A stretch of DNA of 32,000 nt from Telmatocola sphagniphila (GCF_018398935.1 NZ_CP074694.1:4410001-4442000), one strand, 5' to 3'. Shown: positions 1-29,573, numbered from the stretch's first letter. Program-made: numbers and translations. The notes: generated from the sequence alone by a model not told the origin.

Positions 1-1
1 T

Positions 2-763
2 GAATATCCTAATTTTTTTACCAAAGAACTCCCACCTGTAATCATAGATGATGATGATGCCGAACTAATTTCGACAACGTTCACAGTAAAAAATGATAGA
101 GAACGGGCGATCACTTTTTCTCCTGTGAGGATGTCTTGTTCATGTCAGGATGCTGAACTCAGTAAGCAAACTTTACAACCGGGCGAATCGACGATACTGC
201 GCATGGGACTGAGACCCGCGACCCGATCAGGTGCTCAAAAGATCACCTGTGCTATCGATGAAATAGGTGGCGATACAAAAACGTTCGAACTTCGGACTAC
301 GATCTATCGAAAAGCCCAATTTTCAGAACCGGTGATTCATTTCGGAATGGTTGATCCTTTATCAGTATACGAGAAGTCGTTCGCGATCACATTTGCAGCG
401 ACTACCGAAACACAACTACCGAAGAATATCGTTTTCTCATCTCAAGGTACCGTAATATCGAAAATAAATGAGGTCATAGAGCCAATGAAGGATGGCTGTT
501 GGGTCAAGCGGATATCCGCCACTAGCAAACTGATAGCACCGACGGAACTCGGATCAGGCGGATCGAATTTGACGGCTACATACTCAATCGGTACAGAATC
601 GCCGCAAATGCAATCTATCCAAGTCGATTGGTTTGTCCGATCGCCGTTTTCTGTCAGTCCATCTCGAGTAGGGATACTGCCTGCCGAAGTTAAAGACGCA
701 AAGCAAAGCAAATCAGACGCAACCTTCAAATTCGGTCTTCAACAAATAAACCCTTCAAAATAA
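2..763 (+). CDS. DUF1573-like Ig-fold repeat protein, 5' end outside the window
   Basis: Frame 2 is open from base 2 (EYPNFFTKELPPVIIDDDDAELISTTFTVKNDRERAITFSPVRMSCSCQDAELSKQTLQPGESTILRM...). The tracked ORF start at 125 is an internal GTG. The pattern F-x-V-x-N ... sCsC ... L-x-PGE matches my memory of the DUF1573 repeat. The stop is TAA at 761-763. Confidence 0.6.
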   Translation, partial: EYPNFFTKELPPVIIDDDDAELISTTFTVKNDRERAITFSPVRMSCSCQDAELSKQTLQPGESTILRMGLRPATRSGAQKITCAIDEIGGDTKTFELRTTIYRKAQFSEPVIHFGMVDPLSVYEKSFAITFAATTETQLPKNIVFSSQGTVISKINEVIEPMKDGCWVKRISATSKLIAPTELGSGGSNLTATYSIGTESPQMQSIQVDWFVRSPFSVSPSRVGILPAEVKDAKQSKSDATFKFGLQQINPSK

Positions 764-951
764 CTAAAATTATCAGCCCACATTCATCAATTCAGGCAAA
801 AGTAATCAACAAAGATGAAACTCTTGCAATGATCGAAGTAACTATATTGACGAACACTTTAGCTGATTTTCAATATGGCGACCTGATAATTGAAACCGAC
901 AATCCAAAAGCACTTACAGTTACGATACCCGTAGCCATAATGCCTAGTTAA
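694..951 (+). other. Out-of-frame 3' continuation of the DUF1573-like gene (frameshifted C-terminal Ig-like module)
   Basis: Frame 1 is open from 694 to the TAA at 949-951. It reads ...NKPFKITKIISPHSSIQAKVINKDETLAMIEVTILTNTLADFQYGDLIIETDNPKALTVTIPVAIMPS, which is protein-like with a typical module end (xTDNP...TvtIPV). The only start is an ATG about 40 codons from the end. It overlaps the end of the frame-2 ORF. Confidence 0.5.
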
Positions 952-985
952 TAAAAAACCTTTTTACTCATCAAGGGGACATCAG

Positions 986-1450
986 ATGGCAAACGCAAGA
1001 ACTACGGTGACAGCATGGAGCGTGATCGCAACGGGAGTTTTGCTCATTGCAGCCTCCGCGTCAAACGCAACCGATTGGCCCACCTTGGGAACTGCGACAA
1101 CTTTTGTTAGGAATAGATGTATCCAACAAGACCCATACTCTAACGGCGGTAGTTGCACGCATTATAATTATTGCATTGCTAGAAATAACACAGATCCAAA
1201 CTTAACTGGGGTGTGCCCAGGATTTCCGAATATGAAACGAACTGATTTTCGTTCATATGGCTATTGCGTTTTGGATGGACTTGAAAATGGAGGTAGCAGC
1301 TGCGATCAATATACTAATCCTGTTTGCGCTCGAATTACCTTTTATGAGAATGCAGGTTGTACTAGTATGTCAACCTGTAATATGTGGGTGATCATCAATG
1401 GCAACGCCTGCCTCGCGCCTGTCGCTGTTGCCCCTCCGCCTGCTGATTGA
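986..1450 (+). CDS. Small secreted cysteine-rich protein, unknown function
   Basis: ATG start with the purine-rich AAGGGGA upstream. N-terminal signal peptide (VIATGVLLIAASASNA). There are 10 Cys in about 125 mature residues and a Pro-rich tail (APVAVAPPPAD). I recognise no family. Confidence 0.6.
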   Translation: MANARTTVTAWSVIATGVLLIAASASNATDWPTLGTATTFVRNRCIQQDPYSNGGSCTHYNYCIARNNTDPNLTGVCPGFPNMKRTDFRSYGYCVLDGLENGGSSCDQYTNPVCARITFYENAGCTSMSTCNMWVIINGNACLAPVAVAPPPAD

Positions 1451-1506
1451 TAAAGTTAATTAATTTCTAGGGCAGTAATATTTGCAACTTCAAGCATGGA
1501 TACTCT

Positions 1507-2667
1507 ATGAAATACAATTGGCCCTTTCGCGACTGCGGTACCGTTGTCGCAATCTGCATTTTACTTGTCTTGTGCCCGAATATTTGCCATGCACTTTCTG
1601 ATGATGAGCAAATCACTCGGTCGGCAATAATAGGATATTCATCTAATATTGAGTCGTTTTCGTTTTACACAGTTAAATTCCAATTCACATCTGCAAAATC
1701 TTCAACTCATGAAGATGCTATACAAGGAAAGTGGGAAGGCGCAAAGTCATATATTGGCGTTCATACTGTGGATGGTGAATTCGAATCTTACGAACACGAT
1801 GGAAAACCTCCACCTAAAATATCGGCCCCTTCAAATGGCAAAGCAAAAGGTGGTGTGTTTTTCCAACAAATAAATGACTTTATGGAAGAAAAGTATATTC
1901 GATCTCCATCGGGCACAGCAAAGTATACTCGGGGTATTGATGCTATTAACTTGCGGCGGTTAGATACTGATGACCCATTTGACTTTGCGACGCCACTATC
2001 GATGGGATTTTTAGGCCACCGATTTACACGTGGCCCAGACAAACTTTTGCAAGATAAATCAAATTTTGAACCTTCATTCTTGGGGAGAATGGAAAGAAAT
2101 GGTAAGCACTTGATCGGCGTGCGTTTTACTGAGCCTAGATACGGTCAAATTCACGATTTCTTTTTCGATCCGACTCAAGGCTTCTTGGTCGCCTATTATG
2201 AACTTCGCGTGGATAATAAATTGAATTGCCGTGCTCTATTATTAGAGGCTAAGGAAGTAGCACCGAATCGATGGTTTCCAATGCGGACGATGATGATTTA
2301 CGAACCCTCATTAGCCGGTTCAGGCAAATGTTTAGTCTATGAGATCAAAACACTCACCCTTGATGTAGACCGTCGACCAAAACCTGAAGATATTTCATGT
2401 AGTTTTCCCGCAGGTACTCAAGTATTTGTTGTCGGTGAGAAAGGTTTGTTCTATTTAAAACAAAACGAGACAGTTACGGCGTATGGTTTGGCAGAATTAT
2501 TCGATAAAGTTGATAAATCGACAAAATTATCTGTCATGGATACCGCACTCATCGCTCAGCGCCCAAATTTTAAAAGGCAAATTTGGTTTTCGCTTTTTGG
2601 TGCTCTTCTCGTCCTCATTGGAGGGGTTTGGTTATGGCTCCGCAAAAAGCAAAACACAAATGCGTAA
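1507..2667 (+). CDS. Hypothetical exported protein with a C-terminal transmembrane anchor
   Basis: 386-aa ORF. N-terminal hydrophobic segment (VVAICILLVLCPNICHA) and C-terminal TM helix followed by a basic tail (IWFSLFGALLVLIGGVWLWLRKKQ). No recognisable domain. Confidence 0.6.
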   Translation: MKYNWPFRDCGTVVAICILLVLCPNICHALSDDEQITRSAIIGYSSNIESFSFYTVKFQFTSAKSSTHEDAIQGKWEGAKSYIGVHTVDGEFESYEHDGKPPPKISAPSNGKAKGGVFFQQINDFMEEKYIRSPSGTAKYTRGIDAINLRRLDTDDPFDFATPLSMGFLGHRFTRGPDKLLQDKSNFEPSFLGRMERNGKHLIGVRFTEPRYGQIHDFFFDPTQGFLVAYYELRVDNKLNCRALLLEAKEVAPNRWFPMRTMMIYEPSLAGSGKCLVYEIKTLTLDVDRRPKPEDISCSFPAGTQVFVVGEKGLFYLKQNETVTAYGLAELFDKVDKSTKLSVMDTALIAQRPNFKRQIWFSLFGALLVLIGGVWLWLRKKQNTNA

Positions 2668-3533
2668 GCCGATTAGGTATTACCCTTCTCGAGCTTCTTG
2701 TTGTGATTTCAATAATTACTGTTCTTTGTGGATTACTGTTATCCGGCATTCAAAATGTTCGCAGTGCTGCAACACGCTCCGATTGTCAAAATCGAATGAG
2801 GCAAATCGGTCTCGCTCTTCACCAGTATCACTATTCCAATTTAAGCTTCCCGGCCGGAGTTACAAATCGGAACGACCCATACCTCTATCTAAGTTGGAAT
2901 GCCCGCATTCTCCCTTATCTGGAAAGAAACGATCTTTGGCAGCAAACGGTTCAAAACTATGCAAAAAGCCCACTAACATTATTAAATCCTCCTTACCATG
3001 TTACCCTTTCTACACCCGTAGAAGCGTACCGGTGTCCGAATGCTGATCGAATGACCGGTAAAACTCCAGAAGGAGTCGATGTGGCATTTACCTGGTATCT
3101 CGGGGTATTGGGAAGTGATGCTACACTTGCAAATGGAGTTCTCTATGCCAATTCAAAAGTTCGATTAACCGATATTAGCGATGGTACGAGTCAGACAATT
3201 TTCGTAGGCGAGCGCCCTCCCAGTCCTGATTCGCGATGGGGCTGGTGGTATGCAGGAGTTGGCCAAAATGGCACTGGGTCCGGTGACATGATTCTTGGAG
3301 CGGCAGAATATAACAATTCATTTCGACTTCCGGAATGCACTCATGGACCACATCTTTTTAAACAGGGCAAACTCGATAATATGTGCGACACCTTGCATTT
3401 CTGGTCTCTCCATCCAGGCGGGGCAAATTTTACCTTTGTTGATGGATCGGTAAAGTTTTTGACATATTCAGCAAACAAAATCCTGTCTGCACTAAGCACC
3501 CGTGCGGGTGGGGAATCTTTTGATGTTCCGTGA
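2634..3533 (+). CDS. DUF1559 / H-X9-DG family protein with a prepilin-type N-terminal cleavage-methylation signal (pseudopilin-like)
   Basis: N-terminus MAPQKAKHKCVSRLG|ITLLELLVVISIITVLCGLLLSGIQNVRSAA...QIGLALHQYH. C-terminal HPGGANFTFVDGS is H, nine residues, then DG. I prefer the ATG at 2634 over the tracked TTG at 2583, because GGAGG at 2620-2624 lies 9 nt upstream. It overlaps the upstream gene by 34 nt. Confidence 0.9.
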   Translation: MAPQKAKHKCVSRLGITLLELLVVISIITVLCGLLLSGIQNVRSAATRSDCQNRMRQIGLALHQYHYSNLSFPAGVTNRNDPYLYLSWNARILPYLERNDLWQQTVQNYAKSPLTLLNPPYHVTLSTPVEAYRCPNADRMTGKTPEGVDVAFTWYLGVLGSDATLANGVLYANSKVRLTDISDGTSQTIFVGERPPSPDSRWGWWYAGVGQNGTGSGDMILGAAEYNNSFRLPECTHGPHLFKQGKLDNMCDTLHFWSLHPGGANFTFVDGSVKFLTYSANKILSALSTRAGGESFDVP

Positions 3534-3903
3534 TTCCTTCATCAATTTTTTTGTACCCGAATGGTCAAAAGATAGATCGACGTAAAAGAACCTTGATTTC
3601 CCTGCCATGATTCGTTCGTTACGTGCTGATTCTCAGTCGAGCGATGTTAGTTGACAACCTCAGAATACTAACGGTCCGCAGCGTTCTTCATGGCGGGTTC
3701 GTTTTATCTTATCACTTATGATGCGCAGCTGTCAGTGCCCGAGAATCAAGATTACCATCCTATTTCGTCGACCTTCTTCGCATTTCTCTAAAAACCATAG
3801 AATAACTTGAGAATCTCCGATCCCGGCCCAGCTTCTTTCGGATCCTGGTTTTTCCTGTACCAGCGCCGATTGTCCCAGCACCCTGCTCAAAGAGGAGAAC
3901 AGA

Positions 3904-4515
3904 ATGCGAACTTTTGCATTTTTTTGGTTCCTACTCCTTACTGTTTCCGGAATTTCCTGCCAACGAAGCAGCCCGCTAGTCGAACAAAAAACCCAGCCCT
4001 TCCTCAAAGTGGGCCAGTATCCAGGTAACGTGAATGAAACGGATTGTGAACTCATTAACTGGGATATCGAAGGCAAAGCGCTTACAGAGCTCACTTTCCA
4101 ACTTTCGGTTATTGCGAATGGTAAGGTAGAAGTCCTCCAAAAGGAAACTTGTTCCTGGAATCAATACATACCGGGTCCGAAGGAAATCACGGGGCGCTTG
4201 CACCTCGTGATGCGGGAAGGTGATCCTTTTGGATTGAAGAAAAAAATCTCCCCTATTTTCATTCTGAATCTTGGCCCTCTGGAGCCCGGGACACGCGTCC
4301 GTGAACATTCGACCAAAATTCTCGATGCTACAAATCGCGGTGCAACTCATATCCTGCGTGTGGTGACTGGGATGGCTTCTACACAGCCGCGGATTTTTGG
4401 AGCCTATTTTGGCGACTTTCTAGGACCATATCCCAGTGACTGTACGCTGGAGGAATTGAAAAAGAACATGATCAACGGCCTTTCTTACTTGGAACTCACC
4501 GTGGATTACAAATGA
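3904..4515 (+). CDS. Hypothetical lipoprotein or secreted protein
   Basis: ATG preceded by GAGGAG about 6 nt upstream. Signal sequence FFWFLLLTVSGISC with a lipobox-like G-I-S-C. No recognisable domain. Confidence 0.6.
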   Translation: MRTFAFFWFLLLTVSGISCQRSSPLVEQKTQPFLKVGQYPGNVNETDCELINWDIEGKALTELTFQLSVIANGKVEVLQKETCSWNQYIPGPKEITGRLHLVMREGDPFGLKKKISPIFILNLGPLEPGTRVREHSTKILDATNRGATHILRVVTGMASTQPRIFGAYFGDFLGPYPSDCTLEELKKNMINGLSYLELTVDYK

Positions 4516-11022: not shown

Positions 11023-11443
11023 GGTGAAACTCCTAGTGAAGAACGGCCGGTTTAATTGCAAGCCTTTGCGTAAACCGTATTACCCAACCTTCGCAATTGA
11101 CGTTACTATCGGCAAAATGGGATAAGCAACTGTATTGCGTAGTCGGAAAAGTAATAACTTTCAGATTAGAACGCGCCTATTGCGGGAACGCAATTGCAAT
11201 TTGGCGGAATCTGAATGAATTTATGGAAAAAAGGGGATGGGCGGACAATAGGGGTTATAGGACTACGCTGGTGCTCGTTAAAGGCGGCAAAAAAGAGGCC
11301 TGCTGATTGCTGGATGCTCGGCCACCCGGTAGTGGAGATGCAGATTCGATTTGCTTGAAGATTCCCACCAGTTCTATTAAAACAATCTCAAATTCAATTT
11401 ATCTTCGTAGCTTTTTCCATCAGTTTTTTTCGGGGAGTTAGCC

Positions 11444-12979
11444 ATGAGATACCCACTCTTATGTTTGGCCTTATTATTCAATTTGTTCGCCTGCGTCGCC
11501 TTCGCTCAGGACGATGCCGTTGCCAAAAATCTCGATGCGGCCAAGGATCGCTACGACAAGGCACTGCGGGAGTGGTACACCTCGGTTAGCAATTGGCTCG
11601 ACCAGCGTGAGGAAGCAGCCCGAAAAGAAAGCAACAATAAGACGGCCGAGTTGATCAAGTTGGATCGACAAGCTTTTCTGGACAAAGATGAAACTCCCGA
11701 ATCATTACCGAATCCCCTCAAACAGGATATTTCCGACGCACGCAAGACTTTGATCGCGGCCTACGAAACGGCCATCAAAGAGTATACTAAAGCCTCTAAA
11801 GATACCGAAGCCACGGCCGTCGAGAAAGAACTGGCCGCATTCAAAGCGAAGATCGCGGTCAGTAATGGAGACCCCCTCCGTCGCAAGCTCAACGCAGCCA
11901 AGGCGACTTACATCTCCGAAATGGAAAAGTATCTGAACGCATCCCGGGACTGGTTCGAGCATCGGGAAGAGGCGGCTCGAAAAGACGGTAACAAAAAGCT
12001 CGTAGATCAGATAAAAGCCGAGTGGCTGCTTTTCCATGATAAGGGTGACTTGCCCAAATCGGCTCAGCCTCCTTTGAGCTTAAAAGCCAAGTCGCTCCGC
12101 ACGGCCCTGGAGAACAGCTTCACGTCGGTCGTGAAAGAGTACAAGAAACTCAAGAAGGACGAACTGGCGACTGCGGCCGAGAAGGAGCTAAAGGAAGTTG
12201 CGAATTGGAAGCTGACGGTAGAGGCGGTGGCTGCGATCACGCGGGAAAACAACGAGGAAAAGATCCAGAAACAGTTGCGAGAGGAGATGAAACCGGCGGT
12301 TAAATTGCCCGAAGGTTACAAACTAGTTTGGAATGACGAATTCGACGGGACGAAAGTAGACGTTGAGAAATGGAATTTAAAAAGAGATAATTGGGTCGGA
12401 CATCCGGTATCAAAAGATTCGATCTACCTGGATGGTAAGGGGCACATGATTCTGGAAATTAAGAAAATCAATCAGGCCGTGTTCGGCGGTTTAGCGATGT
12501 CTAATGGCAAATGGAAATATGGTTACTTCGAAACACGAATGCGAACCCAACAATTGAAAGGCCATTTTGCAGACTTTGCTTTACTAGGAGATCGTGTGGG
12601 ATGGATTAGCATCTTTCACTATGTAAAAGCTCCTGAGGAACCGATTGGTGGTAAGACTATTCAGTTCAGCCATGCTAATGGTGGAACAACCAATTTTGTA
12701 CCCAAGCTCGAAACTTATCTCAAGCAAATTTCCAGTATAAAGGCATTTCAAGGGATTGGAGAAGATTACCATATTCATTCTCTTCTCTGGACGGAAAAGG
12801 AATGCGTTTTCTACCTGAATGGCATTGAAATTCTTCGGGCACATGACCCCAAAATTAACGATGAATTGGCTATCGAACTGCTACTTTCGGAAGACAGGAA
12901 CGATCTTGCAGCACAAGACAATCGTAAGCCTCCCTATCTGATGTCAGTCGACTACGTGCGGGTTTTTCAGAAGCCCTGA
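11444..12979 (+). CDS. Secreted protein: signal peptide, two ~115-aa helical repeats, and a C-terminal GH16-like (concanavalin-A-like glucanase/lectin fold) domain
   Basis: Signal peptide MRYPLLCLALLFNLFACVAFAQ. Internal repeats share L-x-AAK..Y...REEAARK...KEY.K..KD..AT..EKEL. The C-terminal YKLVWNDEFDGTKVD..KW ... KWKYGYFETRMR resembles the GH16 family signature, but the catalytic motif position reads WISIFH. Confidence 0.8.
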   Translation: MRYPLLCLALLFNLFACVAFAQDDAVAKNLDAAKDRYDKALREWYTSVSNWLDQREEAARKESNNKTAELIKLDRQAFLDKDETPESLPNPLKQDISDARKTLIAAYETAIKEYTKASKDTEATAVEKELAAFKAKIAVSNGDPLRRKLNAAKATYISEMEKYLNASRDWFEHREEAARKDGNKKLVDQIKAEWLLFHDKGDLPKSAQPPLSLKAKSLRTALENSFTSVVKEYKKLKKDELATAAEKELKEVANWKLTVEAVAAITRENNEEKIQKQLREEMKPAVKLPEGYKLVWNDEFDGTKVDVEKWNLKRDNWVGHPVSKDSIYLDGKGHMILEIKKINQAVFGGLAMSNGKWKYGYFETRMRTQQLKGHFADFALLGDRVGWISIFHYVKAPEEPIGGKTIQFSHANGGTTNFVPKLETYLKQISSIKAFQGIGEDYHIHSLLWTEKECVFYLNGIEILRAHDPKINDELAIELLLSEDRNDLAAQDNRKPPYLMSVDYVRVFQKP

Positions 12980-13015
12980 GCAATAAATGGGAGGGGGCGC
13001 TGAATTGGGAATGAC

Positions 13016-13034
13016 GCACTGGCGGAGCCAGTGC
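13016..13034 (+). terminator. Candidate stem-loop downstream of paralog 1 (GCACTGGC-gga-GCCAGTGC)
   Basis: Perfect 8-bp stem with a 3-nt loop, 37 nt after the stop. A T5 run follows only after 10 nt, so it is not a canonical intrinsic terminator. Confidence 0.3.
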
Positions 13035-13138
13035 CACGCAAAGTCTTTTTGGTTAATAGGTTATGACTATTATTCGTGTACACTGGCATAGCCATTGGCA
13101 CGCAACTTTTTTCATCAGTTTTTTTCGGGGAGTTAGCC

Positions 13139-14673
13139 ATGAGATACCCACTCTTATGTTTGGCCTTATTATTCAATTTGTTCGCCTGCGTTGCCTTCGC
13201 TCAGGACGATGCCGTTGCCAAAAATCTCGATGCGGCCAAAGATCGCTACGACAAGGCACTGCGGGAGTGGTACACCTCGGTTAGCAATTGGCTCGACCAG
13301 CGCGAGGAAGCAGCCCGAAAAGAAAGCAACAATAAGACGGCCGAGTTGATCAAGTTGGATCGACAAGCTTTTCTGGACAAAGATGAAACTCCCGAATCAT
13401 TACCGAATCCCCTCAAACAGGATATTTCCGACGCACGCAAGACTTTGATCGCGGCCTACGAAACGGCCATCAAAGAGTATACTAAAGCCTCTAAAGATAC
13501 CGAAGCCACGGCCGTCGAGAAAGAACTGGCCGCATTCAAAGCGAAGATCGCGGTCAGTAATGGAGACCCCTCCGTCGCAAGCTCAACGCAGCCAAGGCGA
13601 CTTACATCTCCGAAATGGAAAAGTATCTGAACGCATCCCGGGACTGGTTCGAGCATCGGGAAGAGGCGGCTCGAAAAGACGGTAACAAAAAGCTCGTAGA
13701 TCAGATAAAAGCCGAGTGGCTGCTTTTCCATGATAAGGGTGACTTGCCCAAATCGGCTCAGCCTCCTTTGAGCTTAAAAGCCAAGTCGCTCCGCACGGCC
13801 CTGGAGAACAGCTTCACGTCGGTCGTGAAAGAGTACAAGAAACTCAAGAAGGACGAACTGGCGACTGCGGCCGAGAAGGAGCTAAAGGAAGTTGCGAATT
13901 GGAAGCTGACGGTAGAGGCGGTGGCTGCGATCACGCGGGAAAACAACGAAGAGAAGATCCAGAAACAGTTGCGAGAGGAGATGAAACCGGCGGTTAAATT
14001 GCCCGAAGGTTACAAACTGGTTTGGAATGACGAATTCGATGGCACCAAAGTGGATGCTAGCAAATGGAACTCGGACAGGGACAATTGGAATGGACTTCCT
14101 CTTTCAAAAGATTCTGTCTATCTGGATGGAAAGGGGCATGCGAATATTGAGTTGAAGCGGGTGAACCAAACACTTTTCGGCGGATGTTTGACTTCAAAAG
14201 TTAAATGGAAATATGGTTATTTCGAAGCGAGGATGAGATCTCAACAACTTGATGGCCACTTTGTGGGCTTATCTTTGTTGAGTGAAGTCACAGATTGCAT
14301 AGATATCTTCCACTACACAAAAGGCGCTGAACAACCCCTTGGTGGAATCGTCCTCAATTCGAGCCAACCTAACATGGGCAAAATTGACTATCTCCCCAAG
14401 TTAGCATCCTATGCCAAGCAAAATACCAAGCTAAAAGCCACTCAAGGACTCGGAGAAGACTACCATATTCACTCTTTACTTTGGACCGAAAAGGAATTCA
14501 TCTTCTACTTGAACGGCATAGAAATTTATAGGACAGAAGCTGTAAAAATTATTAAAGAGTTAAAAGTAGAAATCCTTTTTGATGGAGTTCGATATGACCC
14601 TTCTGGTAATAGCGAGCGCAAGCCTCCCTATCTGACGTCAGTTGACTACGTGCGGGTTTTTCAGAAGCCCTGA
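13139..14673 (+). pseudogene. Paralog 2 of the GH16-like secreted protein, interrupted by a 1-nt deletion (tracked as ORFs 13076..13630 and 13615..14673)
   Basis: Protein identical to paralog 1 up to ...AVSNGDP. The C5 run of copy 1 (11872-11876) is C4 here (13567-13570). This shifts the frame to a TGA at 13628-13630. The correct frame stays open through to 14673. The true start, ATG 13139, matches copy 1. Confidence 0.8.
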
Positions 14674-14709
14674 GCAATAAATGGGAGGGGGCGCTGAATT
14701 GGGAATGAC

Positions 14710-14728
14710 GCACTGGCGGAGCCAGTGC
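14710..14728 (+). terminator. Candidate stem-loop downstream of paralog 2 (identical to 13016-13034)
   Basis: Same GCACTGGC-gga-GCCAGTGC hairpin. A degenerate second copy of the flanking motif (cactggcaGTGCCACGCAAGTCTTTGTTTGGTAATAG) follows at 14775-14811. Confidence 0.3.
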
Positions 14729-14829
14729 CACGCAAAGTCTTTTTGGTTAATAGGTTATGACTATTATTCGTGTACACTGGCAGTGCCACGCAAGTCTTTG
14801 TTTGGTAATAGTTTAAAACTAGATTTCGT

Positions 14830-15441
14830 TCACATCTCGGCGAAGTTTTGCAGCATCTTCAAACCGACGTTTTGACTCTTCTCCGGGTGGAACTGCGTGG
14901 CAAACAGGTTATCCCGCCAGATCGCCGAGGTAAACGGCTTCGGGTAACAGGTCTCGGTGATCGTCAAATCATCTTCCATCGGCTTCACATAATAGGAATG
15001 CACGAAGTAGACATCGGGCTCGGGTGGAAGGCCTTGGAACAACGGACAATTTCGCAGGATCTTGATCTGATTCCAACCCATATGCGGCACTTTTAAGCCC
15101 GGCTCGGCTGCAAAACGCACGACCTCGCCCGGGAAGATATCCAGACCGGCGTGCAGGCCATCCTCGCTACTGCGCGTGAAAAGCATCTGAAAACCTAGGC
15201 AAATGCCCAGAAACAACCGGCCCTCGGCAATATGCTCGTCGATGAGTTGATCGAGCCCCGTTTCGCGCAGCTTGGCGATGGCATCCTTGAAGGCTCCCAC
15301 GCCGGGCAGTACCAGCTTTTCCGCTTCGGCTAACTCATTCAGGTCGGAAGTGACCACCGCCTCGTGCCCGACCCGCTCGAACGCTTTCTGGACACTGCGG
15401 AGATTAGCCATTCCGTAATCGACAATCGCAATTTTCGCCAT
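14830..15441 (-). CDS. hisH: Imidazole glycerol phosphate synthase, glutamine amidotransferase subunit
   Basis: IAIVDYGMANLRSV, LPGVGAF, active-site GICLGFQML, YFVHSY, and FATQFHPEKS. 203 aa. Confidence 0.95.
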   Translation of the reverse strand: MAKIAIVDYGMANLRSVQKAFERVGHEAVVTSDLNELAEAEKLVLPGVGAFKDAIAKLRETGLDQLIDEHIAEGRLFLGICLGFQMLFTRSSEDGLHAGLDIFPGEVVRFAAEPGLKVPHMGWNQIKILRNCPLFQGLPPEPDVYFVHSYYVKPMEDDLTITETCYPKPFTSAIWRDNLFATQFHPEKSQNVGLKMLQNFAEM

Positions 15442-16573: not shown

Positions 16574-17079
16574 GCTTCCAGAATAGCAGCGGCAACGCGG
16601 TCCGGGAATAAGGAGTCACATGAAATTTGAAGATCGGCCAATTGTGTGTAGAGCGGCGTGCGAATATCCAGCATTTGCTGAATTTCGGACAATCCGCCGC
16701 CAGCAAGGTTCGGCCGACGGTCCGCTGTGGTCATATCGGCGTGAATCCGGCCGAATAACGTCTCCGGGCTGGCACTCAGCCAGACCACGAAGCCGGTATT
16801 CTTCATAATTTTCCGATTTTCTTCCCGGAGAACGATGCCGCCGCCGGTGGAGATGACCGTTTTGTGTTCCCGGCTCAGTTCGAGAAGATTTTCCGACTCC
16901 CGATCGCGAAAGGCCGGCTCGCCCTGTGCGGCGAAGTATTCCCGAATCGTCGTCTGGTGCTTCTGTTCGAAAAGGGTATCGGCATCGACATAGCGCCAAT
17001 TCAAATGCTGCGCCAGAAGGGGGCCGACCGTGCTTTTGCCCGAGCCGCGATAACCGATGAGATAAATGCGATCCTTCAT
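16534..17079 (-). CDS. aroK: Shikimate kinase
   Basis: Walker A IYLIGYRGSGKSTVG, DADTLFEQ, and ISTGGGIV. 181 aa. The 3' end overlaps the prepilin peptidase start by 40 nt. Confidence 0.9.
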   Translation of the reverse strand: MKDRIYLIGYRGSGKSTVGPLLAQHLNWRYVDADTLFEQKHQTTIREYFAAQGEPAFRDRESENLLELSREHKTVISTGGGIVLREENRKIMKNTGFVVWLSASPETLFGRIHADMTTADRRPNLAGGGLSEIQQMLDIRTPLYTQLADLQISCDSLFPDRVAAAILEAWDSRFSSSNPIS

Positions 17080-18464
17080 ACCACGGCTCCCGCAAGGATG
17101 CCCGCTTCGCCCGGAACGGCCAGAAAAGGAGTCTGGCAGTTCTCGCAGGTGATCAATCGCTGCTTCCAGAGGAGTTCGTGGTAAGCGTCCTTCTCCTGCT
17201 GCTGATAATACTCGACATAATGCTGGAACGTTTCAAAGTAGTAGTCGGTCCAGGAGTGCAATTTGCGAACAATTTCCTTGGGAACTTTGGGAGAGACGGT
17301 GAACTTGACATCGTCGATTTTCTTCTTGTCGAAAAACAGCCCTTCTTCGCAAAGCACAATGGCATGTTCAGCCGTTCCACCCAGAGCTTCCGAGCGCTGA
17401 ATCATCATCAACAGATCGGGTTCCTTGAGGAGGATCTGGGAGAGTTCGCCTTCCGTCCCTGCCAGCGAGAAGACCGTTTCGACTTCGCCGAGGGTCTTCC
17501 AGTCGTAGACTTTGCCTCGTTTCCAGAGCGTGTAAAGGTTCCAGAGTCCCGATTCATTTTCGCTGGCGATGGCCTGACCCAGACTGGGGTAGAGTTTTCC
17601 CATCAAATGCAATTTTCGCGGCTGCCAGCCGACTTCGAACCATTTCTGGCAGAGCAGGACGCGCAGCCGGACGCGAACTTCGCGGTCTTCGGTCGCGCGG
17701 GGCAGCATCTGCAGTACTTCATCCGCATAAGCTAGCGGCAATTCTCCTGAAGCGACCGAGGCAATGTGATCGAGGAGGCGCAGGACTAACGCAACTGCAG
17801 TGATATCCTCGACCTGCAGCATCCGCAGCGTGCTGGATACCATCAGCCGGTACATCCGGGTGTTGCCGTTCTCCTCCATGCGGGAGTTGACGGCATTGGC
17901 ACAGATTTTTGTCTGTCGCAGAATTTCCCCGAAGCGGACAATCGGCATCCGCTGGTGCGATTCAAACAGACAGATCTCATAGACCATGGCCATTTGCTTG
18001 ACGTTGAAAGCATTGGCGTGAAACTGCGGGGCGGCCTCTTCCCAGAAGGCTTCCACCAGTTCCTGATCCTGGTCGATTTTCTTATCAGCGCGGTTATTGA
18101 TGAGCCACAGGGGAACCGCCGACACGATCAGACTGATGAGGATCAGCACGACGTGATTGCCATGAATATTCGAAATGAATAAGGCCAGCAGCAGACCAGC
18201 GATCAGGACCGGCATCGTCGTGAGCCAGATGTAGGCCCGAGAGGATAATTCGCTGACCAGCACCATACGCTTGGGTCGATTGTCGCCAGGGTATTCGAGC
18301 AGATAGCGGTCGTAGAAATAGGTTTCGTCCTTGCGGAGTTCCCAATTGGTCCAGACGATACGGTCGCCCTCGCGCAGTACGCTGGGAGGTACGGCGGCCT
18401 CCACCAGCACGGCTTCGCGGGCGCACTTCGGACAGACCGTAATTTGGCGAACGGGATACGGCAT
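17076..18464 (-). CDS. Hypothetical membrane protein with terminal CxxC pairs
   Basis: 462-aa ORF. CPKC near residue 11 and CENC near residue 440. Two adjacent TM helices (IWLTTMPVLIAGLLLALFI, VVLILISLIVSAVPLWLI). ATGA overlap with the aroK start. No family recognised. Confidence 0.7.
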   Translation of the reverse strand: MPYPVRQITVCPKCAREAVLVEAAVPPSVLREGDRIVWTNWELRKDETYFYDRYLLEYPGDNRPKRMVLVSELSSRAYIWLTTMPVLIAGLLLALFISNIHGNHVVLILISLIVSAVPLWLINNRADKKIDQDQELVEAFWEEAAPQFHANAFNVKQMAMVYEICLFESHQRMPIVRFGEILRQTKICANAVNSRMEENGNTRMYRLMVSSTLRMLQVEDITAVALVLRLLDHIASVASGELPLAYADEVLQMLPRATEDREVRVRLRVLLCQKWFEVGWQPRKLHLMGKLYPSLGQAIASENESGLWNLYTLWKRGKVYDWKTLGEVETVFSLAGTEGELSQILLKEPDLLMMIQRSEALGGTAEHAIVLCEEGLFFDKKKIDDVKFTVSPKVPKEIVRKLHSWTDYYFETFQHYVEYYQQQEKDAYHELLWKQRLITCENCQTPFLAVPGEAGILAGAVV

Positions 18465-25050: not shown

Positions 25051-25797
25051 GTGCGATACCTGACCGCCATACCGATTTACAATGAAGAAAAGACTCTCCG
25101 GAACGTGCTGCGCGAGGTTCGCCGCTATGCTTCCGAGATTCTGGTTATCAACGACGGTTCGACCGATTCGACAGGTGAACTGCTCCGTTCCGAATCCGAT
25201 CTGCATGTCGTCACTCATGCCCGGAATCTCGGGTACGGGGCGGCCTTGGTCAGCGCCTTCGGGTATGCCATTGCGCACCGTTACGATGTGCTGGTCACCA
25301 TGGATTGCGACGGCCAGCACGAACCCTCCCGCATTCCGGTTCTACTGGAAGCGATAGACCAGTGCGATATCGTTTCCGGCAGCCGTTATCTTCGCGATTT
25401 CCGCCAGGATACGCTGGCCCCGAGCGATCGCCGGTATATCAATGAGACGATTACGGAAGAGTTGAATCAGAAATTCCAATTGAACCTCACCGATTCCTTC
25501 TGCGGTTTCAAGGCTTACCGTCGGGATGCCCTGGAAATGCTGCGGATTACCGAGCGCGGTTGGGGCATGCCGTTGCAACTGTGGGTGCAAGCGGCCCGTC
25601 AGAAACTGCGAATTAAAGAAATTGCCGTGCCCCGACTTTATCTCGACCCGAATCGGGCCTTCGGTGGTGTTCTGAACGATAGCCAGGCGCGCCTGCAATA
25701 CTATCGGGATATAATTGCCCGAGCGGAACGGGATTGCCTGCCACCCAATCTCTGCACCGACTTCCTGGAATTGATGTCTATGGAAAACTGTCTGTGA
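25051..25797 (+). CDS. Family 2 glycosyltransferase (polyprenol-phosphate glycosyltransferase-like)
   Basis: GTG start with GGAGG at 25039-25043. IPIYNEEKTL...ILVINDGSTDST...MDCDGQH (the DxD region) is typical of GT2. Confidence 0.85.
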   Translation: MRYLTAIPIYNEEKTLRNVLREVRRYASEILVINDGSTDSTGELLRSESDLHVVTHARNLGYGAALVSAFGYAIAHRYDVLVTMDCDGQHEPSRIPVLLEAIDQCDIVSGSRYLRDFRQDTLAPSDRRYINETITEELNQKFQLNLTDSFCGFKAYRRDALEMLRITERGWGMPLQLWVQAARQKLRIKEIAVPRLYLDPNRAFGGVLNDSQARLQYYRDIIARAERDCLPPNLCTDFLELMSMENCL

Positions 25798-27236
25798 ACC
25801 AGCGGGAACTCTATCGCGCCCCTAAAGAACATGGAAAGATTCTCGAAATTCCGTCTGGTGCCCAGTACCCTTCTTTGATCGCGTCGAATCTCCAGCGGCT
25901 TGAAACTTCCCCGTTGGAGATCGACCATACTCCCCTGGCGGATTTTCGAAAAAAGGCTCGTCAGGAAGCTCTGGTAGCCGCGAAAAATTATCATCAAGCG
26001 CTCGGCGAACCGTTGCCCGCAATCGAATTCGATCAACTCCTGGTGGCGGGTCATCAGCCCGAATTGTTTCATGCCGGGGTTTGGATCAAAAACTTCGCCT
26101 TGAACAAAATCGCCCGGGAAAATCAGCTGGTTCCCCTGAATCTCATTGTTGATACCGATCTGGTGAAATCGACGGTGCTGGCCGTGCCCGAAGCCATCGC
26201 AGGGGGCTACAAATCGGTGGCGGTGCCGTTCGATGAAGCTCGCTCTGGCCGCATCTACGAGGGAAGTCATATCTGCAAACCGGAACTGTTCCGGCAAGTG
26301 CCGCACGAAGTCGACAAGATTCTGGGACCGAAAGCCGACCGACTTCTGAATCGCTATTGGGCTCGAGAAACGACCGACTTAACTACTGCCTTGACGGCAC
26401 CGCGTCGGCAGGCCGAACGGGATTGGGGCTGCCATAACTGGGAACTGCCGATCAGCCAGTTGTCGCAGACGCCGAGCTTTCTGAAGTTCGTTCGTTACCT
26501 GCTGAACGATCTGGAGAATTTTCGCTCGATTTACAATCAGGTAGTTTTGGACTATCGGAGGAAGTATAAGCTTCGCAGCGAGAATCACCCTGTACCGCTT
26601 TTGGGACAAAAGGGCGCAGCTCTCGAAACTCCCTTCTGGTGCATCGACCCAAAAGCCAATAATCGACAGAGTTATTTTCACTCGCCGGAAAGTTCCGTCG
26701 ATCCCAAGTATCTTCGCTCCAAGGCGTTGATTACAACGCTTTACGCCCGAGTTTTCCTCGGGGCGGGTTTCATTCATGGCATCGGCGGCGGCAAATACGA
26801 CGAAGTAACCGACGCTCTCATTGAACGCTGGCTGGGAATAGAAGCTCCCGGTTATGGCGTGGTGAGTGCGACCGTTCACCTGCCGCTCGACTGGCAGAAA
26901 ATTGAAGGGGACCGGATCCAAAACATCGGCCGACAAATCCGGGACCTGACTTGGAACCCCCAACGACACTTGGCGGAGGATGGCCGGACGCAAAAGAAGC
27001 AGGAGTTAATTGCCGCCGAGCCTACCGGAAAGGCGGAGCGTCGCAAGTGGTTCCGAGAGTTGCAAGAGATTACGGGCGAGTTGCGGCAACCGTTACTGGG
27101 AGAGATTGAGAAGAAAGAATCCGAGCGAAGCAAGGTGGAACATCAACTGGCCATTCAGAAAGTGGCTTTGAGCCGGGAATACAGTTGGGTGTTATTCCCG
27201 GAATCTGTTTTGAAACCGATTATGCAAAACGTTTGA
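25794..27236 (+). CDS. Conserved-looking hypothetical protein (~480 aa)
   Basis: Long uninterrupted ORF. I prefer the GTG at 25794, which overlaps the GT2 stop as GTGA; the tracked TTG at 25734 is the alternative. Notable segment LLVAGHQPELFHAGVWIKNFALNKIA...NLIVDTD. No family that I can name. Confidence 0.7.
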   Translation: MNQRELYRAPKEHGKILEIPSGAQYPSLIASNLQRLETSPLEIDHTPLADFRKKARQEALVAAKNYHQALGEPLPAIEFDQLLVAGHQPELFHAGVWIKNFALNKIARENQLVPLNLIVDTDLVKSTVLAVPEAIAGGYKSVAVPFDEARSGRIYEGSHICKPELFRQVPHEVDKILGPKADRLLNRYWARETTDLTTALTAPRRQAERDWGCHNWELPISQLSQTPSFLKFVRYLLNDLENFRSIYNQVVLDYRRKYKLRSENHPVPLLGQKGAALETPFWCIDPKANNRQSYFHSPESSVDPKYLRSKALITTLYARVFLGAGFIHGIGGGKYDEVTDALIERWLGIEAPGYGVVSATVHLPLDWQKIEGDRIQNIGRQIRDLTWNPQRHLAEDGRTQKKQELIAAEPTGKAERRKWFRELQEITGELRQPLLGEIEKKESERSKVEHQLAIQKVALSREYSWVLFPESVLKPIMQNV

Positions 27237-28130: not shown

Positions 28131-29573
28131 ATGGCATTTGCGTTCACCTGTCCGCATTGTGACTCCACCTTGCGAAGTTCCAAGGAAGTTGCCGAGGGGA
28201 AAAAGATTAGTTGTCCCAAGTGCGGTGGCCAATTCAAGATGTCGGAAGATCTGATTGTGGATGATAACGGAGACGAGGAAGATGCTCCTTCTAAACCGTC
28301 TGTTGCCAAAAAATCGGTGAAGAAAATTGCTAAGGATGAGGAAGCCCCCGAGCCCAAATCGGTACCCAAGCGACGCGTGCCGGAACTCGGTCCGGACGGA
28401 CTGCCCAAGAAAAAGAAGAAGAAGAAAAAGAAGAAAAAGGGAGCCGGGCTCATCATCGGTGCGGCGGCAGTCGTTTCCTTGCTCTTCTTCGGGGTTTTCG
28501 GCTACATCGTTTACACGGTGGCGCTGAAAACCAGCATGGATGTGGCCGCGCTGGCTTTTGCACCGGCCTCCTCGGAGATTTTTGTTGGGTTGGAAGCCCA
28601 GGAAATCGTCAACAACGACCAGACGTCCAAACAGGCCAATCAGATTGTGATGGGGCTGACGACAGTCGATCTGGCCAAGTTAAAATCGGCGGGCGTTAAC
28701 GAGGCCGATGTCGGCAAAATCCTGATCATGTCTAATGATCGCGAGTCGGTGACCGCCGTTCGCTTCGTCGTACCAGTTGAACCCGAAAAGTTGGCAACCA
28801 GTTTCGGAGCCGAGAAAGCGACCGAACAGGACAAAACCATTTACAAACTCAAGGATGCTCAAAAACGAGTTCTTTACTTTCCGGAAAAGGACCTCATGCT
28901 TTACATTCCGGAGAGCATGCTCAAAGGAGACATCCTGAAACGAGACATCAAGAAGTATCAACTCTCTGAAGATTCGGAGAGGTTGCTGAAAGTCTGCTGG
29001 ACCGCCGATTTCTTCTGCGTGATGTCCAAAGGATGGGGGACGAGCGCCAATAATATCTTCAAAGGAATGAGACTGGATTCGGCCCCCCAGCCGGTGCAGA
29101 TGGCTTACACAGTCCGAACGCAATCCGAACAGGTGGAAGTATCGATTCTCAGTCTGATGAGTTCCGCTGATGATGTCAAAAAGTTGCTCGGCAACGGCAC
29201 CTACACGGATGAGCAGAAAACTCAGATCACTCGGGCGGGCAATCAAATCGGGGCCATGAGCAATGAGATTCGAAACATGATCAACGATCTGCTCGAGTAC
29301 CGCGGTACCAGTCGGAGCGGCAATTTGGCCACGGAATACTTCAAGACCAATTACAAAAATGTCGTCGGGCTCGTAAATCGCTTCGCTGCCGGTGTTCCCG
29401 GAGGAGGCGGTAATTTGGGTGGCGGAGCGCCCCGAAATTCAGGTCCAGGTGCGCCGGGCGGACCTCCCGGTGGACCTCCTGGGGGGCCCCCGGGTGGTCC
29501 GCCCGCTGGCCCAGGACGACCCGGAGGCAAACCCGGACCAGGTGGACCGGGCGGACCGGGCGGTAATCAGTAA
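28131..29573 (+). CDS. Zinc-ribbon membrane protein with a poly-Lys tract and a Gly/Pro-rich tail
   Basis: N-terminal CPHC...x17...CPKC zinc ribbon. An acidic/basic linker ends in a run of 11 lysines, followed by a TM helix (LIIGAAAVVSLLFFGVFGYIVYTVAL). There is a ~300-aa extracytoplasmic region. The tail reads GGPPGGPPGGPPGGPPAGPGRPGGKPGPGGPGGPGGNQ. Confidence 0.75.
   Translation: MAFAFTCPHCDSTLRSSKEVAEGKKISCPKCGGQFKMSEDLIVDDNGDEEDAPSKPSVAKKSVKKIAKDEEAPEPKSVPKRRVPELGPDGLPKKKKKKKKKKKGAGLIIGAAAVVSLLFFGVFGYIVYTVALKTSMDVAALAFAPASSEIFVGLEAQEIVNNDQTSKQANQIVMGLTTVDLAKLKSAGVNEADVGKILIMSNDRESVTAVRFVVPVEPEKLATSFGAEKATEQDKTIYKLKDAQKRVLYFPEKDLMLYIPESMLKGDILKRDIKKYQLSEDSERLLKVCWTADFFCVMSKGWGTSANNIFKGMRLDSAPQPVQMAYTVRTQSEQVEVSILSLMSSADDVKKLLGNGTYTDEQKTQITRAGNQIGAMSNEIRNMINDLLEYRGTSRSGNLATEYFKTNYKNVVGLVNRFAAGVPGGGGNLGGGAPRNSGPGAPGGPPGGPPGGPPGGPPAGPGRPGGKPGPGGPGGPGGNQ
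28407..28443 (+). repeat. 37-nt uninterrupted homopurine tract (encodes poly-Lys)
   Basis: aagaaaaagaagaagaagaaaaagaagaaaaagggag contains only A and G on the + strand. Confidence 0.9.

Follow-up and report, generated by a model that had tools for sequence, protein, structure and literature searches.

A head-to-tail duplication of a gene annotated as a member of glycoside hydrolase family 16 (GH16) was analysed in a 32,000-nucleotide (nt) stretch of the Telmatocola sphagniphila chromosome (GCF_018398935.1, NZ_CP074694.1:4410001-4442000). This stretch is called the window, and coordinates are counted from its first letter. The 6,592,641-bp genome belongs to the Gemmataceae, and public annotation names the product of the first copy, QVL30675.1, 'family 16 glycosylhydrolase'. 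Unit 1 spans 11406-13094 and unit 2 spans 13101-14788. The start-to-start spacing of the direct repeats is 1695 nt and, further on, 1694 nt, in agreement with the offset given in an earlier reading of the DNA made from its letters alone (the sequence-only reading). The units are composed of the following parts.

11406-11443, plus strand: 5' leader of copy 1, duplicated over only ~38 nt before the ATG, GGGGAG ribosome-binding site included
11444-12979, plus strand: intact coding sequence (CDS) of copy 1, 511 amino acids, QVL30675.1 (open reading frame (ORF) and GenBank annotation)
12346-12925, plus strand: diverged core of copy 1 (codons 301-494), GC 42%, GC at third codon positions (GC3) 0.40
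12980-13094, plus strand: 3' flank of copy 1, matching the copy-2 flank exactly through 13088
13095-13105, no strand: duplication junction, where the diverged start of a second 54-nt-like element meets the 5' leader at CTTTT microhomology
14040-14619, plus strand: diverged core of copy 2, GC 42%, GC3 0.43
14674-14788, plus strand: 3' flank of copy 2, same as 12980-13088, through 14782

Near-identical unit ends surround a diverged core

A full alignment of the 5' parts gives mismatches at 11417, 11497, 11545, 11608, 12256, 12259 and 12325, the first of which lies in the leader at -27 from the ATG, and a 1-nt deletion in copy 2 as the sole indel. Breakpoints were located with a two-breakpoint maximum-chi-square scan, using 300 site permutations as the null. 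The scan delimits a core between 12346 and 12925 with a maximum chi-square of 415 compared to a permutation maximum of 23.7; 213 of 580 sites differ within the core and 13 of 1109 outside it. The breakpoints are sharp, with identity dropping from 98% to ~67% over ~20 nt, and the core they enclose corresponds in copy 1 to the GH16-like jelly roll without its first and last strands. On the 3' side the only mismatches are at 12942 and 12949, within the last 17 codons, and 12950-13088 (139 nt), which includes exactly 109 nt past the stop codon, is identical between the copies. The outermost ~12-20 nt at both unit edges are far more diverged than the sequence beside them, and the first ~12 nt of the copy-1 leader have already partly diverged from the copy-2 leader.

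The sequence-only reading had described this layout closely. Its count of six 5' substitutions plus one indel stands, with two positions corrected (12256 and 12259 in place of 12255 and 12258). Its core of ~12341 to ~12925 at ~60% amino acid identity compares to the computed 12346-12925 at 56%, and its near-perfect last codons followed by 109 identical nt and its abrupt rather than gradual change in identity were found as well.

Synonymous sites are homogenised outside the core

Codons 1-300 contain six synonymous and no non-synonymous differences (sd = 6, nd = 0), as the earlier reading had stated, which gives a synonymous divergence (dS) of 0.031. The random chance that six coding differences are all synonymous is ~1e-4, and purifying selection therefore acted on both copies until very recently. 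In core codons 301-494, the proportion of synonymous differences (pS) is 0.74, which is saturated, non-synonymous divergence (dN) is 0.33, and identity is 56% for amino acids and 63% for nucleotides. The core differences are evenly distributed over strands and loops; transitions (106) and transversions (107) are in balance among them, and there is no adenine bias. With a dN of 0.33 and saturated dS, the core is under purifying, not diversifying, selection.

Among the codons that specify the same amino acid in both copies, 6 of 291 differ in the 5' part compared to 52 of 104 in the core (Fisher p = 6e-29). Selection on the protein thus cannot be what keeps the flanks identical: their synonymous sites were homogenised too. 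The same codon counts exclude simple duplication followed by drift, which the sequence-only reading had already considered insufficient. Together with the 63-70% identity between modules in a related gene cluster (see below), they also rule out that the flanks stay identical through constraint on the nucleotide or protein sequence. The pair carries near-identical tracts, homogenised at synonymous sites too and sharply bounded by diverged paralogous sequence, as in gene conversion. Homologous recombination or gene conversion acting on the flanks, as proposed earlier, is the best explanation of the synonymous-site contrast.

The spacing of the 5' differences points to more than one homogenised tract. 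Seven mismatches in 934 nt leave a gap of 647 nt (p = 0.002 by the largest-gap test, a result that depends on few sites).

11609-12255, plus strand: youngest homogenised tract, 647 nt, identical to 13304-13949 except for the 1-nt deletion (largest-gap test)

This gap indicates that the perfect tract is very recent and nested in an older block that is 2-3% diverged. Nested tracts of differing age, seen here at few sites, are a further feature of gene conversion.

The C-terminal domain has a GH16 fold without the catalytic motif

11444-12979, plus strand: domains of copy 1, signal peptide 1-21, module 1 ~22-140, module 2 ~141-262, linker, GH16-fold domain 284-511

The C-terminal domain matches PF00722 weakly but above the gathering cut-off of 22 bits, with 26.3 bits (E = 6e-6) for copy 1 and 35.9 bits (E = 6e-9) for copy 2. 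An AlphaFold2 (AF2) model of the C-terminal 228 residues, built on 45 sequences, has a predicted local distance difference test score (pLDDT) of 82.5 and a predicted template modelling score (pTM) of 0.84. The top 50 Foldseek matches of this model in the PDB are all GH16-fold proteins, with template modelling (TM) scores of ~0.7 and E-values down to 8e-14. The model and its matches place the domain in the GH16 beta-jelly-roll (concanavalin-like) fold.

The catalytic motif was compared in an alignment with 43 homologues at 29-34% identity. E-x-D-x(x)-E, which supplies the nucleophile, the helper aspartate and the acid/base, is invariant in 43 of 43 homologues and is missing from both Telmatocola copies, which have (W/gap)-I-S-I-F-H (copy 1) and (C/gap)-I-D-I-F-H (copy 2) at these positions. 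Both copies are also without an 11-residue loop upstream of the catalytic strand, and 17 of the 46 highly conserved columns (>=90%) are changed, including the cleft tryptophans W172, W215 and W307. To judge from these replacements, both copies are almost certainly pseudo-enzymes, members of the fold and not active hydrolases. The loss of ExDxxE, the deletion of the 11-residue loop and the replacement of the three cleft tryptophans are shared by the two cores, and these derived losses therefore predate the divergence of the cores. The proteins are most likely envelope-associated or secreted binding modules, not enzymes.

Catalytically inactive members of the GH16 fold include the invertebrate beta-glucan recognition proteins. 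Rv0315 of M. tuberculosis, a 'pseudo beta-1,3-glucanase' (PDB 4wzf), is also a GH16 beta-jelly-roll with replaced catalytic glutamates, and 4wzf is among the Foldseek matches. The Telmatocola proteins have a sequence identity of at most ~20% to these inactive proteins and differ from them in that the three cleft tryptophans and the 11-residue loop are gone as well and in their unique double helical N-terminal region.

The core was used as a phmmer query against 1.84 billion cluster representatives of ~15 billion proteins, this species' proteome included. Copy 2 was the only relative at E < 1e-30, and the next best matches had 31-36% identity. In this exhaustive HMMER search, the cores are 62% identical to each other and at most 36% identical to anything else. 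A scan of a genome collection gave two distant GH16 loci only, and a metagenome scan with generic peptide patterns gave a best identity of 31% among the matches listed. An exact look-up of contigs encoding the copy-1 product gave no entry. By these searches the core forms an orphan lineage, known from two members that both lie at this locus.

The N-terminal modules belong to a family in the Gemmataceae

The N-terminal half of the protein consists of the signal peptide and two helical modules of ~115 residues that are 37% identical to each other. Each module is modelled as four helices, and the module pairs span 11507-12229 and 13205-13923 of the window. The modules match no Pfam family, and the N-terminal model gave no significant fold match in the PDB. 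In Gemmataceae genomes and metagenomes, 46 proteins (160-370 residues) were found that carry one such module after a signal peptide, and the family has the conserved motif REEAARKDGNKKLVDQIK. The C-terminal domains of these proteins are PF06439 (four), NPCBM (four) and FKBP (one), and most members are without a recognisable domain. The module appears restricted to Gemmataceae-type planctomycetes and is a candidate new domain family. The signal peptide (11444-11506) contains L-F-A-C17, which is lipobox-like by eye, and a cysteine near the end of the hydrophobic region is found in several, not all, members; lipoprotein anchoring is possible.

Among the members checked, most module-family genes are singletons. 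A 6.8-kb metagenome contig (L083; k141_250157, ENA) carries four of them between positions 1 and 6815.

L083 567-1451, 1536-2513 and 2568-3545, plus strand: module-family genes in tandem
L083 5996-6814, minus strand: fourth module-family gene

The modules of L083 are 63-70% identical in amino acids and are joined to two kinds of unannotated C-terminal domain. This divergence shows that 100% module identity in Telmatocola is not intrinsic to the module. Clustering is thus a trait of the family, and what sets the Telmatocola pair apart is how nearly identical the neighbours are. The Telmatocola genes share with the family a signal peptide, a four-helix module of ~115 amino acids, a C-terminal domain that varies by member and, in some cases, a tandem cluster. 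Three of their features were seen in no other member: two modules, a GH16-like domain, and near-identical modules between neighbours.

Low GC follows the GH16-like domain

The GC content is 51% in the 5' part and 42% in the core. The sequence-only reading had the core value right and had set the 5' value too high, at 57%. GC3 is 0.60-0.69 in the gene's own 5' part, 0.40-0.43 in both cores, and 0.63-0.73 in the neighbouring housekeeping genes truA, asd, hisH, prepilin peptidase and aroK. The fall in GC content sets in at ~12250-12290, where the GH16-like domain begins, and precedes the identity breakpoint by 60-90 nt. The low GC therefore goes with the GH16-like domain and not with the conversion tract. 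GC-biased gene conversion as the source of the contrast is not supported, given that the fall follows the domain boundary and the N-terminal part matches genomic GC3.

The atypical GC3 of the cores bears on a different history, in which the tandem duplication was recent (dS ~0.03) and one core was then replaced by recombination with a divergent imported allele. Such an import would leave the same two sharp breakpoints, would need a similar number of events, and is compatible with the low GC3 of both cores as a sign of foreign origin. The persistence of low GC3 in both cores is the chief reason to keep this scenario alive. However, the low GC3 is in both cores, not in one. The donor would also have needed flanks at least 97% identical around a 37% diverged core, which is itself a conversion-type mosaic. 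The N-terminal modules of L083, the one other tandem array seen, differ by 30-37%, so the flanks of any relative distant enough to be the source of the core would not be recombinable. An import into a recent duplication does not account for unit edges that have diverged beside 139 perfect nt, and no candidate donor was found among ~15 billion proteins. On balance, core import is unlikely.

A frameshift disrupts copy 2 as assembled

The sole 5' indel lies within a run of C residues in the CDS, which reads GACCCCCTCC in copy 1 (C5) and GACCCCTCC in copy 2 (C4). The sequence-only reading had noticed the indel and had missed its consequence, a frameshift of the second copy.

11868-11872, plus strand: C5 run of copy 1, in-frame state, at the module 1/2 junction (between ..SNGDP and LRRKL..)
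13563-13566, plus strand: C4 run of copy 2, 1-nt deletion relative to copy 1, leading to a frameshift
13139-13630, plus strand: first ORF of copy 2, 163 amino acids, QVL30676.1, signal peptide and module 1, with 19 out-of-frame codons before the stop
13567-14673, plus strand: remainder of copy 2 in the shifted frame, module 2 and GH16-like domain

GenBank splits copy 2 into a 163-amino acid piece, QVL30676.1, annotated as 'hypothetical', and a 352-amino acid GH16 piece, QVL30677.1, annotated from an internal ATG at 13615 (ORF 13615-14673) and without a signal peptide. As assembled, the locus has one intact and one disrupted paralogue. The frameshift falls midway through the 647-nt perfect tract, precisely where the first helical module gives way to the second. 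Either copy 2 was inactivated very recently, after the last conversion event, or the assembly retains a homopolymer error in a stretch where short reads cannot be assigned to one copy. No further split genes were noticed among the larger ORFs of the 32-kb window, and errors are therefore not pervasive. Programmed -1 frameshifting at the C-run was ruled out by eye, as the X XXY YYZ slippery heptamer is absent.

The same properties raise the question of an assembly artefact, meaning a collapsed or falsely expanded repeat or a chimeric consensus that created the duplication or its identical flanks. Polishing is difficult in near-identical repeats of 0.9 kb, and the frameshift specifically, in a homopolymer in the middle of a 647-nt multi-mapping tract, could be an error. 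Nevertheless, 213 sites distinguish the cores, both of which encode open, homologous and structurally sensible domains, so two real copies exist. The junction is structurally defined and shows microhomology, the 6.59-Mb genome record is closed, and no other split gene was noticed among the larger ORFs of the window. An artefact behind the duplication or its flanks is extremely improbable.

A frameshift at a homopolymer, inside constant ends that enclose a variable middle, also resembles programmed variation. In this reading a constant scaffold would present exchangeable binding cassettes, in the manner of pilE/pilS, vlsE or diversity-generating retroelements (DGRs), with the C-run as a phase switch for copy 2. 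The homopolymer-length difference does disable one copy, and the N-module family bears varied C-terminal domains. Against this, the gene is present only twice, the window has no silent cassettes, and no third relative above 36% identity was found among representatives of ~15 billion proteins. Saturated dS with a much lower dN points to ancient divergence, not ongoing diversification. Equal numbers of transitions and transversions without adenine bias do not fit a DGR, and a scan of gene products between 8.9 and 18.5 kb showed no reverse transcriptase or recombinase; a DGR target was ruled out on the balanced spectrum and the lack of a reverse transcriptase among the neighbouring products. The tract is C5 versus C4 in one assembly, and C5 is shorter than the homopolymers typical of contingency loci. 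Programmed variation is very improbable. The likeness to Neisseria pilE/pilS, Borrelia vlsE and DGR proteins is superficial: a segment that varies between constant ends, with recombination taking place between the homologous flanks. These systems differ from the Telmatocola pair, which has two ancient variants, no silent archive in the window or the protein databases, no diversifying selection and no adenine bias.

The comparison with cassette exchange and variable-tip gene families drawn in the sequence-only reading is thus not supported by two copies with no silent cassette in the window and no diversifying selection, and its expectation of further copies or silent cassettes was not borne out in the window or, above 36% identity, in the protein databases. 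Its lectin-like idea fared better in part. The loss of ExDxxE gives it some support, and the module is indeed joined to other beta-sandwich domains, such as PF06439 and NPCBM, in other Gemmataceae proteins; the variable-tip component is not supported.

Elements in the flanks and the rest of the window

A 54-nt element is present in both 3' flanks, at 13029-13082 and 14723-14776, and a third, older copy follows copy 2.

14781-14834, plus strand: older copy of the 54-nt element, 72-80% similar, directly 3' of copy 2 and overlapping the hisH stop codon

The first ~16 nt of the 14781-14834 element recur in diverged form 3' of copy 1, which marks this element as the outer edge of the duplicated unit. 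Beyond these three, there are no copies of the 54-nt element elsewhere in the 32-kb window. It may be a terminator region common to the convergent genes. A perfect 8-bp GC-rich hairpin, GCACTGGC-GGA-GCCAGTGC, lies 37 nt past each stop codon (13016-13034 and 14710-14728). The terminator scan did not call the hairpin because the T-run is not adjacent. The promoter and terminator scan gave a site count below chance expectation, with none in the intergenic spacers. Folding of the spacer RNA showed no stability above shuffled sequence (z = 0.07), and Rfam and tRNA searches gave no matches.

Elsewhere in the window, positions 1-4000 have low GC (0.42-0.47 compared to ~0.55 elsewhere) and contain a 386-amino acid ORF at 1507-2667 with a GC3 of 0.36 and without a Pfam match, beside a DUF1559 (PF07596) protein at 2583-3533. 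This region may be a foreign or atypical island. The ORFs at 17076-18464, 25734-27236 and 28131-29573 (462, 500 and 480 amino acids) have no Pfam match that reaches the gathering score, and the 500-amino acid ORF shares 64 nt, read in a different frame, with the end of a GT2 glycosyltransferase ORF (25051-25797).

A probable old duplication with converted flanks

The locus is probably an old tandem duplication in T. sphagniphila whose flanks were repeatedly homogenised by interlocus gene conversion around a core too diverged to convert. The mosaic and the rate contrast are direct observations, from which we infer the conversion events, their number and the barrier. The proposed history would start with a tandem duplication joined at ~13095-13105 through CTTTT microhomology between the 54-nt 3' element and the leader. 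The duplicated gene encodes a secreted non-catalytic protein, its catalytic residues having been lost before the duplicate cores diverged. The cores then diverged for a long time, to synonymous saturation, under purifying selection. Intrachromosomal conversion between the copies would repeatedly have overwritten 0.94 kb on the 5' side, which contains the leader, the signal peptide, both helical modules and the first beta-strand, and 0.16 kb on the 3' side, which contains the last beta-strand and the 3' flank. The latest event would have left the 647-nt perfect tract. Conversion would halt at 12346 and 12925, where ~63% nucleotide identity is too low for homologous pairing, and selection for different ligands may also keep the two cores distinct. 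Diverged outer unit edges are the pattern expected from an old duplication and from conversion tracts that seldom reach the ends of homology.

Several points weigh against this history or parts of it. Both cores retain a low GC3 (0.40-0.43) despite saturation, and more amelioration might be expected in this genome. The genome, metagenome and protein database searches found no orthologue or second strain, and the direction and number of the conversions are read from the spacing of a few differences between two sequences. As for function, binding is deduced from the loss of catalytic residues only; the cleft tryptophans are gone too, and the ligand may not be a glycan.

Concerted evolution of paralogues by gene conversion has a bacterial example in tufA/tufB. 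Tandem paralogues whose divergence is mosaic because of interlocus gene conversion have been described (bioRxiv 10.1101/2025.10.29.685298; PMC6053082), including prokaryotic cases (PMC6053082). The Telmatocola pair resembles such systems in its side-by-side paralogues, its synonymous-level identity abutting deep divergence, its sharp bounds and its nested tract ages. It differs in that only the unit ends are homogenised and the main globular domain is spared, and in that one copy is frameshifted. The phenomenon is known, and what is new is at the descriptive level: a pseudo-GH16 orphan lineage, an unnamed helical module family and a frameshifted second copy.

A more speculative extension of gene conversion at this locus concerns function. 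The module could be an envelope display scaffold for interchangeable beta-sandwich binders (pseudo-GH16, DUF1080/PF06439, NPCBM), with conversion keeping the scaffold identical in two ligand-specific variants and the C-run switching the second variant. We regard this proposal as a long shot. If true, scaffold identity would be actively maintained between ligand-specific variants, and the C-run between the modules would be an on/off switch.

The locus does not overturn current understanding. It is a clean bacterial case of partial concerted evolution, with a dS of 0.03 and a saturated dS in one gene pair and breakpoints sharp to ~20 nt, which makes it a potential textbook example or a locus on which the mapping of conversion tracts in Planctomycetes could be tested. 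The label 'glycoside hydrolase family 16' on the two T. sphagniphila ORFs (11444-12979 and 13615-14673) is functionally misleading, as both catalytic glutamates are absent. Two mis-annotated hydrolases affect carbohydrate-active enzyme (CAZyme) counts and inferences on polysaccharide degradation in peat planctomycetes.

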